Of a DNA stretch of 64,000 nucleotides, positions 4,965 to 37,196 are shown piece after piece. The notes under the pieces were generated by a model. That model ran no database searches and was not told where the DNA came from. It saw only the letters and a program-made list of their open reading frames with translations. This DNA is from Candidatus Neochristensenella gallicola. GTDB taxonomy: Bacteria > Bacillota > Clostridia > Christensenellales > QALW01. The stretch lies in the NCBI GenBank assembly GCA_904419735.1, contig CAJFSR010000014.1, forward strand, positions 5,955 to 69,954, given 5' to 3'. The translations under genes were made by a program, and so were the position numbers. Each line of letters begins with the position of its first letter. Position 1 is the stretch's first letter.

Positions 4965-6587
4965 ATGAGCTATAAGGCGCTTTACAGAAAGTGGCGGCCC
5001 GAATTTTTCCGGGACGTAGTGGGTCAGGAGGTAATAGTGCGGACACTCAGGGCGCAGATAACTTCCGGCCATATAGCGCACGCTTATCTTTTTACCGGTC
5101 CGCGGGGTACGGGCAAGACCAGCATGGCCAAAATATTTGCGCGTGCCATTAACTGCCTTGAGCCTGAAGAAGGGGACGCCTGCGGCAAATGCGAGGTCTG
5201 CCTTGCGCTTAAGGGCGAGGCTATGGATATAATAGAGATGGACGCCGCAAGCAATAACGGCGTGGATGAAATACGGGCGCTCAGGGAGAATATAGTTTTC
5301 CCGCCGGCGGTGGGAAGATATAAAGTGTATATCATAGACGAAGTTCATATGCTCTCTCAGGGCGCGTTCAACGCTCTTTTAAAGACTCTGGAAGAGCCGC
5401 CCGAGCACGCGGTGTTTATACTTGCCACTACCGAGGTGCATAAACTCCCTGCCACTATTCTTTCCCGGTGCCAGCGCTTTAACTTTAAAAGCATCAGCGT
5501 ATCGGATATAAGCGGGTACCTTAAAAAAGTGCTTAAGGCCAGCGGCGCTGAATTTGAGCCGCAGGCAGTGGATTTAATAGCCCGCTCGGCCGAGGGGGGC
5601 ATGAGGGACGCGCTGTCCATAGCGGATATGTGTTTGTCCTACTGCGGCAGCAATGTTGGATATGAGGACGTAGTAAGCATTTTGGGTACGGCGGACAGGG
5701 AATTCATGTTTAAGTGTGCCGACGCGCTTATAAATTCGGATGTTAAGGGGGCGTTGGACGCCTGCGCGCAATTAACGGACAGCGGCGGGGATATAGGGGT
5801 ATTCATGAGGGATATCATGAGCCACCTTTCGGATGTGCTTACGGCCAAGCTGGCGGGAAAAGAGGCTTTAACAGCCCTGCCTGACGATATTGTTTCCCGG
5901 CTCCTTGAGCAGGGTGAACGTGCTGATGCGGACAGGCTTATGCGCGCGATTGAACTGCTGGCGCAGGCGGAGAGCGAGCTTAAGCAGCATTCCCGGCCCA
6001 AGGTTATATTAAGCGCCGTTATGGCCAGAATCTGTACTCCCCGTCTGGAAGAGGACGCGCTTGCGTTAAGGGACCGAATTTCCGTGCTGGAACAGGAATT
6101 AAGCAGCATTAAAGCTAATGGCATAGAGATGTCTTCTCGGCCGGCGCAGCCTGCAAAGACCGAGGATAAAAAAGAGGCTTCATCCAATTCATCCAAAGCG
6201 CCTGCGGCAGAAAAAAAGATTTCGGGCGCTGTTAAGGAAACCAAGCAGGATGCTCAGCAGGGTGAACTTTGGGAGGCGCTTTTAGCAAGAATGCGCAAAA
6301 ATGCCATGCCCGTGTATATGACGCTGAAAAGCGCCGAGGGCGGGCGCAGGCAGGATAATGCATATATAGTTATGTTTTCTCCTGAGCATGAGAGCAAGAT
6401 GAAATTTATTAATGGCAAGACAGAGGCAATATCAAAGGAACTGGAAGCTCTCACGGGGGAAAAACTGGCTGTGCGTACTGAGCAAACCGTCCCCGCACAA
6501 AAGCAAGAGGAGCAGGATGAGCTTATCGCAAATATAATTGATATATTTGGAGAAGAAAATATACATTTTAAAGATTCGGAGGAATGA
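4965..6587 (+). CDS. dnaX: DNA polymerase III subunit gamma/tau
   Basis: Walker A GPRGTGKTS, zinc module CGKCEVC, DEVHML and SRCQRF clamp-loader motifs. Confidence 0.93.
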   Translation: MSYKALYRKWRPEFFRDVVGQEVIVRTLRAQITSGHIAHAYLFTGPRGTGKTSMAKIFARAINCLEPEEGDACGKCEVCLALKGEAMDIIEMDAASNNGVDEIRALRENIVFPPAVGRYKVYIIDEVHMLSQGAFNALLKTLEEPPEHAVFILATTEVHKLPATILSRCQRFNFKSISVSDISGYLKKVLKASGAEFEPQAVDLIARSAEGGMRDALSIADMCLSYCGSNVGYEDVVSILGTADREFMFKCADALINSDVKGALDACAQLTDSGGDIGVFMRDIMSHLSDVLTAKLAGKEALTALPDDIVSRLLEQGERADADRLMRAIELLAQAESELKQHSRPKVILSAVMARICTPRLEEDALALRDRISVLEQELSSIKANGIEMSSRPAQPAKTEDKKEASSNSSKAPAAEKKISGAVKETKQDAQQGELWEALLARMRKNAMPVYMTLKSAEGGRRQDNAYIVMFSPEHESKMKFINGKTEAISKELEALTGEKLAVRTEQTVPAQKQEEQDELIANIIDIFGEENIHFKDSEE

Positions 6588-32975: not shown

Positions 32976-33004
32976 TTGACAATGCGGCGGCAGTTATATA
33001 TATT
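32976..33004 (+). promoter_or_regulatory. candidate sigma-70 type promoter of the marR-ABC operon
   Basis: TTGACA (32976-32981), a 17-nt spacer, then TATATT (32999-33004). Confidence 0.5.
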
Positions 33005-33055: not shown

Positions 33056-33514
33056 ATGAATAAAGGAGCTTCGCCCCCTGAAACTCTTGCCGGCTTTAGG
33101 GAGGCTACGATGGAATTGGATAATGTCTATTCCGCGTTTCCCAAGGCATGCGGCTTGTCAGACGCTGAATACTGGTCTCTGCTTATGGTTTACGAAGGCG
33201 CTGCGACCCAGAGCCAAATCAGCGGCCAGCTGTTTCTCAGCCGCCAGACATTAAATTCAGCTTTTAAGCAGTTAAGGAAAAAGGGACTGATTAGGTTAGA
33301 GCCGTTTGAAGAAAACCAGCGTTCAAAGCGGGCGTTCTTAACAGAGGCGGGCAAGCTGTTTGTGGAAAAGTATGTTATTCAAATGCACCGGGTAGAGGAA
33401 GAGGCATGGCGGCGGCTGGATGAAGAAGAGCGTATAAAGCTCACATCCCTTACGCGGAAATTCAGCGGCCTGGTCCGCCGGGAATTAAAAGCTTCAAAAT
33501 TTAATATTCATTAA
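33056..33514 (+). CDS. MarR family transcriptional regulator
   Basis: The start at 33056 has GGAGGG upstream. Shows a winged-helix block (TQSQISGQLFLSRQTLNSAFKQLRKKGLI). Confidence 0.85.
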   Translation: MNKGASPPETLAGFREATMELDNVYSAFPKACGLSDAEYWSLLMVYEGAATQSQISGQLFLSRQTLNSAFKQLRKKGLIRLEPFEENQRSKRAFLTEAGKLFVEKYVIQMHRVEEEAWRRLDEEERIKLTSLTRKFSGLVRRELKASKFNIH

Positions 33515-33517
33515 TGC

Positions 33518-33601
33518 TCATCGGAGGTTTGCGGCCGTAGCCGCAGCGACCGGAGAAGATGTCGAGTGCGCTCGGTTATTTAAAAGTAACCGGGCGTTTT
33601 T
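33518..33601 (+). promoter_or_regulatory. leader/attenuator element E1 (structured region, SD-ATG mini-ORF, intrinsic terminator)
   Basis: Starts with TCATCGGAGG and has the hairpin TGCGGC-CGTA-GCCGCA. GGAGAAGATG opens a 20-codon ORF (33559-33621). The terminator CGCTCGGTTA-N8-TAACCGGGCG plus T5 lies at 33569-33601. Homologous to E2. Confidence 0.5.
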
Positions 33602-33617
33602 ATGTTTGGAGGCAATT

Positions 33618-33860
33618 ATGAAAAAAATTATAAACGGAATTACATATGATACCTCGGCGGCGCAGCAGTTATCTGCCTTTTATTTTTCATTGCATGGCAT
33701 TGCAATAGAGGAAACTGCCTATTTAATGCCGGAGGGGCACTATTTCATTGTTCGGAGCATTAACGGGCAGGAAACGGTATTATTAACTGCATCGGCTGAA
33801 GATATACCCCGCTGGAAAAAATATCGGAGCCAGTTCCCTGAACAGCTCTGGCTTGGATAA
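33618..33860 (+). CDS. hypothetical 80-aa protein
   Basis: ATG at 33618 with GGAGG 5 nt upstream. No recognisable motif. Flanked by the two E elements. Confidence 0.4.
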   Translation: MKKIINGITYDTSAAQQLSAFYFSLHGIAIEETAYLMPEGHYFIVRSINGQETVLLTASAEDIPRWKKYRSQFPEQLWLG

Positions 33861-33953
33861 GGAGGAAAAAGCCGTGCAGAGCATGATTTGTATTCCTGCG
33901 CCGGTATGGGGGCGTTCTCCTCCAAATAACGGCAAATTAATATTAAATAACGG

Positions 33954-34058
33954 TCATCGGAGGACTGTCTGCCGCAATGGCGGGCTGAACGGATATTCAG
34001 CCGCAGTCGAGGAAGATGCCGGGTACGCCCGGATTATTACGGTAATCCGGGCATTTTT
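33954..34058 (+). promoter_or_regulatory. leader/attenuator element E2
   Basis: Starts with TCATCGGAGG and has a larger structured insert. GAGGAAGATG opens a 9-codon ORF (34016-34045). The terminator GCCCGGATTA-N6-TAATCCGGGC plus T5 lies at 34027-34058, directly upstream of the ABC exporter start. Confidence 0.5.
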
Positions 34059-34093
34059 CTGCTGAATTATATAGGAAAGGATTAAATGATTCA

Positions 34094-36095
34094 ATGAAGC
34101 TTATATTGAGGTTTATAAAGCCCCACTGGAAATTGTGCGCGGCTACCATTTTGCTTTTGATTGTGGACGTACCCTCAGTTTACAAGGAAGACGGTCAGAA
34201 GGCATAAAATATGCGTCCTGCTGCGTTGCTTTCGCTCCAAGTACGCCCGGTACATGTCGTTTCTGCGCCTTGCATGACACAAATTTTATGCCTTCTGACT
34301 TTGAGACCTCAAACGGAGAGAATTTCTTCATTTTCAAGGCAGACGAAGAAAGCGTACCGGGGAGTACGCTGATTGAGGATAACGCGGAAAATGAAGAAAT
34401 TATCACTTTGAGGCGTGTAGTTCCTTGTAAACTGAGGGTAACGGGAACCTTAATAATTTCTACGTTTGCCGCGGAAATGCTCAATCAGGGGACATCGGGA
34501 GCGTCCTTTGAAATGCTGCTTAATACCGGGCTGAAAATGGCGGCTGCATCAATTATCTCCAGCGTATGCGCTATTTTGGGCGGATATGCCTGCGCCGCTC
34601 TTTCAGCGCGGGTAGGCAAGGATATGCGGCTGGCTATTTATAATAAATCCTTAAAACTCGCCATATATGATTTCCGCCAGTTTGGAACGGCTTCTATTAC
34701 CACCAGAACGGTTTCGGATATTACCACCATTCAGTTTGCATTGACCAGCTTTATACAGATGGTGCTGCCTGTTCCGGTAATTTTCGTTGTGGCGCTTCTT
34801 TTGGCCTTCGGCCTGGATGTGGAAATGGGCGCTATACTGTTAATTGCAGTAGCGGTTGTTTTAGTTATCGCCCTGTTTATTATGAAAAGCGCTTCGCCTT
34901 TGTTTAGAAAATTACAAAAGCTGCTGGACAGGATGACCACTATTTTACTGGAAAACATAACCGGAGTCCGCGTGGTCCGCGCCTTCAATAATGAGCGCAG
35001 GGAGGAAGCGCGCATGGGAGAGGCTTTTTCCAATTACGCCCAGACTTCCATAAAGGCCAACCGGCGGTTCGCCAATCTGGACGGACTTTCCTTCCTGTTC
35101 ATAAATCTTTTTATAGTTATTGTATATTGGCTCAGCGGCGGGAGAATCAGCTCCGGGCATCTTCAGATTGGCGATATAACCGCCGTTATCGGTTATGCAA
35201 TGATGGTGCTGTTCTTTTTGATGATGGCCCAGATGGTTGTTCTGACCATGCCCCGCGCTTTGGAATGCTGCGGCCGCGTGCAGGCGGTTCTGGAGCATAC
35301 GCCCGAAATCCAGGACATGGTTCCGGAAAAAATGCAGGCTGCGTGCGAAGAGAAGAAGGACGAGGTGCTGGCATTTAAAGATGTTTCCTTTAGGTTTGCA
35401 GACGCGGAGGAGGATACTTTAAGCCATTTGAATTTCGTATGCAGACGAGGGGAGACCACGGCGATAATAGGCGGCACAGGCAGCGGCAAGTCCACCGTAG
35501 CTTCCCTGATCCTGCGCTTTCATGATGTTACCGGGGTGCGGTATGCTTAAACGGCACGGACGTCCGGCAGCTTACCCAGCATTATCTTAGGGATCACTTA
35601 GCCTATGTCCAGCAGAAGGCGTGGCTGTTTTCCGGCAGCATTGCGGACAATCTGCGGTACGGCAATAAAGACGCCGGGGAAGAAGAATTAATGCATGCAG
35701 CAGACGTAGCGCAGGCGGGGGATTTTATACGCGCTTTGCCTGAGGGGCTGGATTCCTATGTGGCGCAGGGCGGCACTAATTTTTCGGGCGGGCAGAAGCA
35801 GAGGCTGTCCATTGCCCGCGCGCTGGTGAAAAAGCCTGAGCTCTACATATTTGACGACAGCTTTTCCGCCCTGGATTTTAAAACTGATGCGGCTCTGCGC
35901 AAGGCGCTGGCGAAGGAAACCAAGGATTCCGCAGTGTTGATTATTGCCCAGAGGGTGAGCACCATCCAGCATGCAAATCAAATAGTAGTGCTTAACCAGG
36001 GGCAAATGGCCGGCATCGGCACCCATGAGGAGCTGCTGCAAAATTGTCCGGTTTATCGGGAAATCTATGAATCGCAGACCAAGGAGGCACATTAA
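34094..36095 (+). pseudogene. ABC exporter (fused TMD-NBD, MdlB/MsbA type) disrupted by a MITE insertion and a frameshift
   Basis: The N-terminus MKLILRFIKPHWKLCAATILLLIVDV (34094-34171) is separated from the rest of the TMD by the element at 34172-34438. The Walker A region GGTGSGKST is followed by a -1 frameshift in a G-run (35533-35536). The NBD continues in another frame (LSGGQKQRLSIARAL, IFDDSFSALD). Confidence 0.85.
34172..34438 (+). mobile_element. MITE family A, reference copy A6 (267 bp) inside the ABC exporter gene
   Basis: Has a perfect 20-nt inverted terminus including the flanking TA (TACCCTCAGTTTACAAGGAA / TTCCTTGTAAACTGAGGGTA). TA lies on both sides (34170-71 and 34439-40). 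Removing the element plus one TA restores the reading frame. Confidence 0.92.
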
Positions 36096-36097
36096 GC

Positions 36098-37196
36098 ATG
36101 AAGCCCGAAATGAAAAAACAGAGAGGCCGGAGCACCGTATCCAGGCTGTTTGGCCAGCTTAAGGGCCAGCGTGTCCGGCTCAGCGTTGTCGCTCTTTCCA
36201 TTATTGTTTATGTGGGCCTGAGCATATATACTCCCATGTTCAGCGCGACTGTAATAGACCATCTTTGGCAGAGCATTCAGGCGGCCTGGAAAGAGGGAAT
36301 ACCATTTAGCATTACCTGGACTAATATGGGCGCGGAATTGACCCAATTAAGCGTGCAGTATCTGCTTACCTGGATTTTCTATTATCTGCAATCCTACCTT
36401 ATGGCAAACGTAGCCGAATGCCTTAATTTGGAGCTGCGCAGCCAGATTGCCAGGAAATTGAACCGGCTGCCCTTAAGCTTCTTTGACAGGAATAAGGCCG
36501 GTGAAATTTTAAGCCGTGTTACCAGCGACCTGGATAAAATTGCCGAAGTGCTTCAGACGGGTTTGCTCAAGCTTATAGTGGCTGTGGGGACTATTATAGG
36601 TTCTTTGGCGGTAATGTTCTATTACAGCGCGGCGCTGACCTGCATTTTCCTGGGCTTTATGCTGGTAAGTATGATAATTACACAGATTGTAGCCAAAAAG
36701 AATCTGCGCTGTGCGGCTGAGCGTCAGGAAACTATAGGAGAACTGACGGGTATAGTGGAGGAATATTATAACGGACGTAACGTGATTAAAGCATACAATC
36801 ATGAGGAGGAAAGCATCCGGCAGGTTGCCGCCGCTACGGAAAAAAACCGCATTGCCAACCAAAAAGCGGACTTTTTAACCAACTGCGTCAATCCGCTTAT
36901 CAGGCTGCTTACCCGCCTGGCTAATGTTGTTATTGCAATTATTGCAGGCAGGGCCATGCTTAACGGCACAATGACGGTAGGCGTTGTGCAGGCGTTTTTC
37001 CAATATGTCAATCAGACGGCCGAGCCTCTGACCGAGGCCTCCTTTATGATTAATTCGCTTCAGTCGGCGCTGGCCTCGGCTAAACGTACTTTTGAATTAT
37101 TAGACGAAGAGGAGGAGCGACCCGATCCATCTCATCCTGCCGTATTGGAGCGCGCTCAGGGCAATATCGCTTTTAGTCATGTAAGCTTCGGGTACC
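36098..37196 (+). pseudogene. second ABC exporter, 3'-truncated (TMD only, NBD lost)
   Basis: A typical type I exporter TMD runs up to NIAFSHVSFGY. After about 37196 the frame runs antisense through the FGE-like gene, so the 591-aa track ORF is chimeric. No Walker A, signature or Walker B follows. Confidence 0.8.

Follow-up and report, generated by a model that had tools for sequence, protein, structure and literature searches.

A family of structured terminator leaders ahead of efflux genes in gut Clostridia, present twice in a marR-ABC exporter operon of Candidatus Neochristensenella gallicola

Two homologous RNA leaders, E1 and E2, lie in a marR-ABC exporter operon of Candidatus Neochristensenella gallicola (Bacillota, Clostridia, Christensenellales). 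They are members of a family with over 100 distinct sequences that is found in gut Clostridia ahead of multidrug efflux pump genes. The operon lies in a 64,000-nucleotide (nt) stretch of DNA (GenBank assembly GCA_904419735.1, contig CAJFSR010000014.1, forward-strand positions 5,955 to 69,954), which we call the window and whose own numbering is used throughout; other collected loci are cited by their L numbers. On the + strand, the operon consists of a promoter, a MarR gene, E1, an 80-codon gene, E2, and two ABC exporter genes. We read E1 and E2 as ancient paralogous copies of an autonomous, cis-acting structured leader that precedes efflux and detoxification genes. That this leader acts as a structured RNA attenuator and not through a leader peptide is, in our judgment, very likely. 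The complete statement, that it works as a riboswitch-like ON attenuator in which an effector decides between terminator and antiterminator, is one toward which we lean slightly.

The leader family

An earlier, sequence-only reading of the window had called E1 and E2 homologous, and all the sequence features on which it relied are present at the positions it gave. The copies share 74% column identity over their aligned ends, a resemblance far beyond chance. Each opens with the 5' box TCATCGGAGG (33518-33527 in E1, 33954-33963 in E2), runs through a Shine-Dalgarno (SD)-like stretch into an ATG (GGAGAAGATG, ending at 33561 in E1; GAGGAAGATG, ending at 34018 in E2), continues with a small hairpin (CGAG-TGCG-CTCG, 33563-33574, and CCGGG-TACG-CCCGG, 34019-34032, respectively), and ends in an intrinsic terminator recognized by a terminator scan as a hairpin followed by a T run. 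The short open reading frames (mini-ORFs) that begin at these ATGs comprise 20 (E1) and 9 (E2) codons, and that of E1 terminates as ATGA at the start of the gene for an 80-amino-acid (aa) protein. Since E1- and E2-type copies co-occur in ~18 related operons of different genera, the duplication is old and not this genome's own.

An exact-pattern search (CATCGGAGG..GAAGATG) of the source genome and 60 relatives returned only the two copies in the window and chance matches, and the family surfaced only once the search was anchored on MarR homologues. Contigs encoding relatives of the 80-aa protein show the same operon with both elements, the MarR protein has many homologues, and at 52 MarR loci from species genomes the element stands directly behind the MarR gene in nearly all cases. 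A fuzzy search yielded 79 elements (73 unique) by MarR homologues in 52 genomes. A covariance model, R1, built from 46 simple-type copies with E1 in the seed and E2 left out, matches 91 elements in the collected loci, and a metagenome pattern scan added 21 further copies. Applied to a sample of the class, R1 detected the family in 13 of the 399 Clostridia species, spread over 12 of the 217 genera, and in a phylum-wide sample it did so in 3 of 401 species; the genomes searched number 878 in total. One carrier is Pseudoflavonifractor capillosus An827 (L057), and the copy at L009 stems from a run in which the 80-aa protein matches Anaerofilum sp. An201. An Rfam 15 cmscan gave nothing relevant for the window (E ≤ 10) or for nine other loci (E ≤ 1), and neither did a full-text literature search for the conserved strings or a keyword search for a described motif.

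Heterodimeric ABC exporters form the majority of the downstream genes. A further ~14 read as MATE transporters, five of them confirmed by Pfam or NCBIfam, and the others are GNAT acetyltransferases, one MBOAT gene, one RlmN/Cfr-family gene, and one sigma factor. Several non-homologous gene families of related function sit behind the leader.

Some relatives are incomplete. Degenerate leaders downstream of MarR (L039, L060, L063) keep the part that comprises P3 and the terminator (see below) and have lost P2, for example GAGCUGUCGAUGCGCUCGAUUA...; in Christensenella, such P2-less leaders adjoin MATE genes, upstream of them.

Fold and covariation

The family consensus reads N-UCAUC-GGAG-[P2 ... 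CGYA ... P2']-G-R-(0-5 nt)-AA-GAUG-UCGRG-UGCG-CYCGG-UUA...UAACCGGGCGC-U5+. Helix P1 (CAUC/GAUG) encloses a purine-rich internal loop with GGAG on its 5' side and G-R-(0-5 nt)-AA on its 3' side; P2 is a variable helix capped by a conserved CGYA tetraloop, with an optional extra hairpin; and P3 is a 5-bp hairpin (UCGRG-UGCG-CYCGG) that follows P1 directly. The terminator, a GC-rich hairpin with a U tract, is kept in all full-length members. E1 has the simple-hairpin type of P2. In E2-type copies, P2 is a three-way junction, and in E2 itself the P2a hairpin carries a CGCA loop (33973-33976) while the extra hairpin, P2b, spans 33984-34001. E2 is partly degenerate in this genome, with mismatches in P2a and a P3 loop of UACG in place of UGCG.

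P1, P2, and P3 form a conserved structured domain in which every helix covaries. The covariance model misaligned P2a in branched copies. To obtain the P2 statistics, these were therefore read directly, and the simple copies were aligned with MAFFT. In this alignment, made without fitting to the structure, 98.5% of cells are paired, compared with 19.6-37.5% when the partners are slid, and compensatory changes occur in six of six inner P2 pairs. Among the 36 branched copies, the base helix, P2a (CGCA loop), and P2b all covary. P1 is more constrained: in the 91-sequence alignment, one pair is A-U in 86 and G-C in 2 sequences, and the next is U-A in 84, C-G in 2, G-C in 1, and U.G in 1. It nevertheless includes four double compensations, to CGUC/GACG (L044, L071) and CACC/GGUG (L028, L077), with L073 showing a U.G wobble. 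The A-U versus G-C difference that had been noted between the small hairpins of E1 and E2 extends to the whole family, as the fourth pair of P3 is A-U in 50 copies, G-C in 35, and G.U in 4, with no mismatch; metagenome copies contribute the P3 variants UCGGA/UCCGG and UCGCG/CGCGG. A U.G pair closes the base of P3 in 83 of 89 sequences, and G.U pairs are compatible with RNA from the + strand only.

Two further candidates were considered and rejected. A kink-turn at the P1/P2 internal loop does not fit, as the G.A tandem is not conserved, the would-be G1b is an A in GGAAAAGAUG and GAGAAAGAUG, and the 3' strand of the loop varies in length by 0-5 nt. Mimicry of rRNA was suggested by GAUGUCGG, which matches a strand of the 23S peptidyl-transferase center exactly, yet the rRNA of these organisms reads GAUGUCGGCUCGUCGCAUCC, and only an 8-mer is held in common, which by our own estimate is near chance expectation for a sequence of rRNA size.

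Autonomy and linkage to marR

Every copy has a gene downstream of it and is in the sense orientation. A TTGACA-17-TATAxT promoter precedes the stand-alone copies, with 6-25 nt from the end of its −10 box to the element; the promoter of L084 (12/12 matches) ends 11 nt before it and that of L072 (11/12, with an extended −10) 6 nt before it. A stand-alone transcript therefore begins at P1 or very shortly ahead of it, so that an upstream open reading frame (uORF) cannot be accommodated. Moreover, five genomes with stand-alone copies have no MarR of the clade encoded beside the linked copies. The leader RNA is autonomous and self-contained, as the promoter-adjacent copies and the carrier genomes lacking this MarR clade demonstrate. 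On account of these five genomes we reject the MarR protein as the general partner of the RNA, and on account of the copies directly behind promoters we reject coupling to an upstream ORF as the general mechanism.

Where the leader is linked to marR, the marR stop most often ends 4 nt ahead of CAUC, as it does at E1 (TAA, 33512-33514). The MarR frame runs into the element in ~10 loci (L064, L055, L065, L057, L042, L048, L062, L073, L026, L022), and there the 5' box UCAUCGGAGGAC doubles as coding sequence for the MarR C-terminus ...SSED(L); in most of the remaining loci the stop ends 2-25 nt before CAUC. On reaching the marR stop, a terminating ribosome would cover the 5' strand of P1. The "intergenic" sequence behind this MarR clade is strongly conserved, more so than the MarR protein itself, and the leader family accounts for this.

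A second MarR subfamily (...LTQKHIGLLEEELNQIIE) also has copies, in L015 (− strand copy), L016, L017, L021, L056, L068, and L026:1790-1880. These are followed by a small conserved ORF of ~46-80 aa without a family match (M-D-I-S-T-R-I-A-F-L-E-S-R-L-H-R-L-S...R-K-I-N-R-E-I-R-N-L-K).

A second point of contact with translation lies ahead of E2, where a conserved uORF carries the motif WGRSPP. The motif, in the form (V/I/L)WGRSPP, occurs in 19 loci, where it stands either in the E1-E2 interval or immediately before the ABC gene (besides the window, L010, L012-L013, L015-L018, L021, L023, L024, L026, L027, L029-L032, L040, and L054). The uORF reads through E2 in this genome and often reads into E2 elsewhere, and in the 16 loci with an E2 5' box, 22-38 nt separate that box from the PP codons upstream. 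Since the codons of the uORF show synonymous variation, we take it to be translated. RSPP, which is RAPP-like, is reported to be partly arrest-competent and to be avoided in proteomes (PMC12992588). Across the 19 loci, the uORF is short, conserved at the protein level, located upstream of a regulated gene, and equipped with an R-x-P-P core. The peptide up to PP (~15-18 residues) would still be within the exit tunnel, which suggests small-molecule-dependent rather than force-dependent arrest. Translation may act on E2 through the WGRSPP uORF rather than through the mini-ORF.

One could go further and regard this coupling as the sensor itself: a ribosome that terminates at the marR stop (E1), or that translates or arrests in the WGRSPP uORF (E2), would occlude or free the 5' strand of P1, and its position would determine the fold and so report translation stress. 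The usual 4-nt spacing of the marR stop, the ~10 loci in which the MarR ORF ends inside the element, and the translated uORF with its RAPP-like motif shortly before E2 are what this explanation draws on, but stand-alone copies start a few nt past the transcription start with their fold intact, and single-element operons without the uORF are common. We consider it very unlikely. As stand-alone copies keep the whole fold without an upstream ORF, coupling to marR or to the uORF can be no more than an added layer on an otherwise self-contained leader.

The mini-ORF

The sequence-only reading had assigned control to the SD-ATG mini-ORF, whose ribosome would cover the terminator arm. Its view of E1 and E2 as homologous cis-regulatory leaders with terminators and a competing hairpin has held, but the ribosome mechanism has not been borne out: the mini-ORF is not conserved in homologous leaders, and the translation model fails for that reason. 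The ATG at issue is where the P1 3' strand ends. Most copies retain it; GTG replaces it in three, ACG in two, and CTG in one that is degenerate. Four of the five copies with ACG or GTG have a compensating 5' box (CGUC opposite ACG in L044 and L071, CACC opposite GUG in L028 and L077), the fifth being L073, where GUG faces an unchanged CAUC. Both ACG copies lie upstream of intact pump genes. The SD-like purines are absent from many copies, which have GAUAAG or GAAAAG instead (e.g. GTCGATAAGATG, GTCGAAAAGATG), and where present they are only 3 nt from the ATG. Mini-ORFs can be as short as 3 codons or exceed 600. Their stop has no set position and moves as the terminator loop gains or loses bases, and even a close relative of the window differs from it (10 codons in L013, against 20 in the window and in L010). 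The six shared codons, ATG TCG AGT GCG CTC GGT, are invariant at all three positions; that third positions are as invariant as the rest points to selection at the level of the RNA rather than of a peptide.

The case for a ribosome that initiates or stalls over the terminator 5' arm, giving antibiotic-inducible read-through as in bmrB-bmrCD and the erm and cat leaders, is that AUG is found in ~95% of copies, that many have GGAG 3 nt upstream, and that a ribosome on this AUG would cover both P3 and the terminator 5' arm. Efflux pump, GNAT, and RlmN/Cfr-family resistance genes are, in addition, often controlled in this way, with BmrCD as a precedent (PMC4191407). Set against this, P1 sequesters the AUG, ACG replaces it in two copies with a compensated P1, a spacing of 3 nt is poor where the SD exists, and neither the length, nor the stop, nor the codons behave as those of a selected reading frame. 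We regard this mechanism as highly improbable and retain the structured RNA attenuator.

Switch geometry and proposed mechanism

The terminator 5' arm consists of half of the P3 loop and the entire P3 3' arm, so P3 and the terminator are mutually exclusive, in line with the competition that had been noticed for the small hairpin. Folding energies range from −3.9 (E1) to −7.8 kcal/mol (E2) for P3 and from −18.6 to −18.9 kcal/mol for the terminator. As P3 is much the weaker of the two, the default would be termination, with the pump genes off. Export and modification genes behind a default-off terminator are the arrangement to be expected of an ON switch responding to a toxic compound.

We propose that an effector, most likely a small toxic molecule exported by the downstream pumps, stabilizes a compact P1-P2-P3 fold in which the P2 loop CGCA would dock on the complementary P3 loop UGCG and P3 would stack on P1. 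The terminator 3' arm could then not displace the P3 5' arm, RNA polymerase would read through, and the pump genes would be switched on. In this operon the switch would act twice in series, behind marR and before the ABC genes, adding to repression by MarR and, at E2, to the WGRSPP uORF.

The loop-loop contact is put forward as a hypothesis, and the comparative evidence on it is mixed. CGCA is combined with UGCG in 70 sequences, CGUA (16 sequences) and CGCG (1) would keep wobble pairing, and L119 shows a double compensation, CGCU with AGCG. Several points weigh against the proposed switch, and the first concerns these loops, as UGAG occurs with CGUA in seven copies and CGGA (n = 2), UACG (n = 2), and GGCG (n = 1) also depart from the pattern; four pairs between two tetraloops would, moreover, be sterically demanding. 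No ligand can be inferred from the downstream genes. The near-invariant sequence of P1 and P3 could equally mean recognition by a protein or other macromolecule. The AUG and GGAGG box are nearly universal, which keeps a ribosome-based reading alive at low probability. Finally, translation may modulate folding, both where the marR stop lies within ~25 nt of the 5' box or inside it and at E2, which the uORF precedes.

Whenever the P3 loop is UGAG, the P2 loop is CGUA (p ~1.5e-5 by our own hypergeometric estimate, which ignores relatedness). The copies concerned (L035:3718-3830, L070, L072, L076, L077, L078, and L140) are mostly stand-alone and lie upstream of MATE, GNAT, or RlmN/Cfr-family genes. 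They may constitute a variant subclass with altered specificity.

Recognition by a trans-acting factor is the main rival to a directly sensed small molecule, because the paired regions are unusually invariant. A protein or other macromolecule, in the manner of PyrR, LicT, or HutP, would bind the P1/P3 block and the two tetraloops and hold P3 closed, or open it, on a signal. AAGAUGUCGRGUGCGCYCGG is almost invariant while the MarR proteins drop to 50% identity, both tetraloops are conserved, a MarR-like gene lies upstream of most copies, and in some operons an 80-aa protein with a weakly PUR-repeat-like predicted fold is encoded between the two leaders. Yet no protein gene is always adjacent; stand-alone copies have a promoter and a pump gene only, the MarR clade is missing from five carrier genomes, and no more than ~10 loci have the 80-aa gene, whose product has a PUR-like match that is weak. 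Such a factor seems unlikely to us, and we continue to prefer a leader that responds to a small molecule.

The element might, at the other extreme, be an unregulated, constitutive partial terminator or insulator between marR and the pumps, with hairpins kept for RNA stability or processing. Its terminators are indeed strong, but a plain terminator needs no upstream domain of 60 nt in which helices covary, junctions are invariant, and a hairpin competes, and this domain is retained in at least 12 genera, before unrelated gene families and directly behind promoters. This explanation is extremely improbable.

A more specific form of the preferred reading is one that we entertain only tentatively. 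The family may constitute a new class of riboswitch in Clostridia in which a xenobiotic or toxic metabolite of the gut is sensed directly and turns on multidrug-type ABC and MATE exporters as well as some modifying enzymes, with ligand-locked tetraloop docking that protects the 5-bp antiterminator, with the CGUA/UGAG combination possibly marking a second ligand specificity, and with use twice in series in marR operons together with a RAPP-like arrest uORF.

Of the riboswitch classes that await discovery, most are expected to be rare and confined to few lineages. The family described here is fairly common in Clostridia of the human and chicken gut and stands ahead of two unrelated families of multidrug pumps. 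If it binds a small molecule, the ligand would reveal a compound that the pumps handle in the gut, and the RNA would serve as its natural sensor; if the leader senses a protein or the ribosome instead, it would represent a new antitermination system for resistance-type genes. The design would be compact, a 5-bp antiterminator held by tertiary contacts. In the marR operons, control would be layered by nature, as a repressor is combined there with two RNA switches in series and with a candidate arrest peptide.

The operon in the window

The features of the operon are collected in Table 1. The gene between the leaders is rare, with its product falling into four clusters in the protein database, and the protein has no family match in Pfam or NCBIfam. 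Its AlphaFold2 (AF2) model (pLDDT 85) has six strands and one helix and shows a weak likeness to PUR repeats, a nucleic-acid-binding Whirly-like fold (Foldseek E 0.04, TM 0.47).

The regulated pump genes look inactive in this assembly, by decay or, as it is a metagenome-assembled genome (MAG), by assembly error. The gene for ABC subunit A is disrupted by a 267-bp miniature inverted-repeat transposable element (MITE; 34172-34438) and a frameshift near 35535, and the intact L010 orthologue aligns to it by tblastn as three pieces in different frames. Subunit B stops after residue 366, so that its ATPase domain is missing. L010 is the intact version of this arrangement, with ABC genes of 577 and 593 aa.

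The genome holds a third leader copy (G000:C64:2940-3044, corresponding to L079 1501-1605), which is of the branched type (67.9 bits) and lies 6 nt behind a second, diverged MarR-like gene and ahead of a MATE gene. That MATE gene (L079 1673-3020) is split into three frames.

Table 1. Leaders, genes, and other features of the marR-ABC operon, in window coordinates.
Feature	Position	Strand	Evidence or remarks
marR operon promoter, sigma-70-type, TTGACA-17-TATATT	32976..33004	+	Promoter scan, 11/12 matches
MarR-family regulator gene	33056..33514	+	Pfam MarR_2 and MarR
E1, complete leader copy, simple-hairpin P2 type	33516..33603	+	Model R1, 95.2 bits, E 8.5e-21; fold z-score against shuffled controls −3.8
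E1 P1 5' strand, CAUC	33519..33522	+	Pairs with GAUG 33558-33561, including ATG 33559-33561
E1 P2 stem, conserved CGUA loop at 33536-33539	33526..33551	+	Six inner pairs with compensatory changes
E1 P3, proposed antiterminator, UCGAG-UGCG-CUCGG, directly 3' of P1	33562..33575	+	Covariation at the fourth pair
E1 intrinsic terminator (stem 33568-33597 and U tract)	33568..33601	+	Terminator scan, 13 pairs; fold
80-aa protein gene between the two leaders	33618..33860	+	No Pfam or NCBIfam match
Conserved uORF, start GTG 33874 or ATG 33883, WGRSPP at 33907-33924	33874..34065	+	19 loci
E2, second leader copy, three-way-junction P2 type	33952..34060	+	Model R1, 49.9 bits, E 1.1e-9; fold z-score against shuffled controls −3.6
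E2 P1 5' strand, CAUC	33955..33958	+	Pairs with GAUG 34015-34018; ATG 34016-34018
E2 P2 domain	33963..34008	+	Base helix GACUG 33963-33967 / CAGUC 34004-34008
E2 P3, CCGGG-UACG-CCCGG	34019..34032	+	−7.8 kcal/mol
E2 intrinsic terminator (stem 34027-34052 and U tract)	34027..34058	+	Terminator scan, 11 pairs; −18.9 kcal/mol
ABC exporter subunit A (regulated gene)	34094..36095	+	Pfam ABC_membrane and ABC_tran
ABC exporter subunit B, truncated	36098..37195	+	tblastn, residues 1-366 only of the L010 orthologue

Comparison with known systems

Measured against known types of leader, the family shows what is typical of riboswitches, namely a covarying domain, a sense-strand leader behind a promoter, an overlap of the terminator with an alternative helix, and association with several gene families. 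The hallmarks of a leader-peptide attenuator, a conserved start with a ribosome-binding site and a conserved peptide, length, or stop, are absent.

The nearest design is that of guanidine-IV (mepA) and its orphan variant Gd4v. Both are Firmicute ON switches built from hairpins with conserved loops, a proposed loop-loop docking, and a terminator, and both lie upstream of MATE and GNAT genes, with Gd4v found mainly in gut samples (PMC7736828, PMC9788692). Conserved hairpin loops, the terminator, MATE and GNAT partners, and, for Gd4v, the gut bias are common to these RNAs and to the family described here. The pseudoknot of guanidine-IV and Gd4v, however, uses the loop of the terminator hairpin itself, without a separate antiterminator, whereas in the present leaders a separate 5-bp hairpin, P3, comes after the P1/internal-loop/P2 domain and competes with the terminator, and the main partner of these leaders is a heterodimeric ABC exporter behind a MarR gene. 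The Rfam 15 cmscan gave no match to guanidine-IV or Gd4v in the window (E ≤ 10) or in the nine loci (E ≤ 1), and neither sugE/Gdx nor PRK07324 transaminase genes are among the listed downstream genes. Lacking detectable similarity and the signature genes, and having a separate antiterminator, the leader family is not a member of guanidine-IV or Gd4v.

For the regulated genes, the nearest precedent is bmrB-bmrCD of Bacillus subtilis, a ribosome-mediated attenuator that needs translation of its leader peptide (PMC4191407). A leader with a terminator, a heterodimeric multidrug ABC exporter, a Firmicute host, and, as proposed for the present family, induction on top of promoter control are found in both. 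The present family differs in that its candidate mini-ORF fails conservation and in that it has a covarying, sensor-like domain that does not need an upstream ORF.

The WGRSPP uORF resembles RAPP-like arrest peptides (ApdA, ApdP, and SecM, with RAGP) in being a short ORF with an R-x-P-P core upstream of a regulated gene. It departs from them in the position of the motif, which lies at about codons 13-18 and is not C-terminal in most loci, in being too short to leave the exit tunnel, which makes force-dependent release unlikely, and in the genes downstream, which are drug exporters and not Sec or YidC components.

The fluoride, ZTP, and guanidine-I ON switches each combine a promoter, a structured domain, a helix that competes with a terminator, and a transporter gene. 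Conserved junctions, a variable peripheral helix, and a default-off state are common to these riboswitches and the family described here. Expression platforms are usually the least conserved part of a riboswitch, whereas the most conserved block of this family includes the antiterminator and the base of the terminator.

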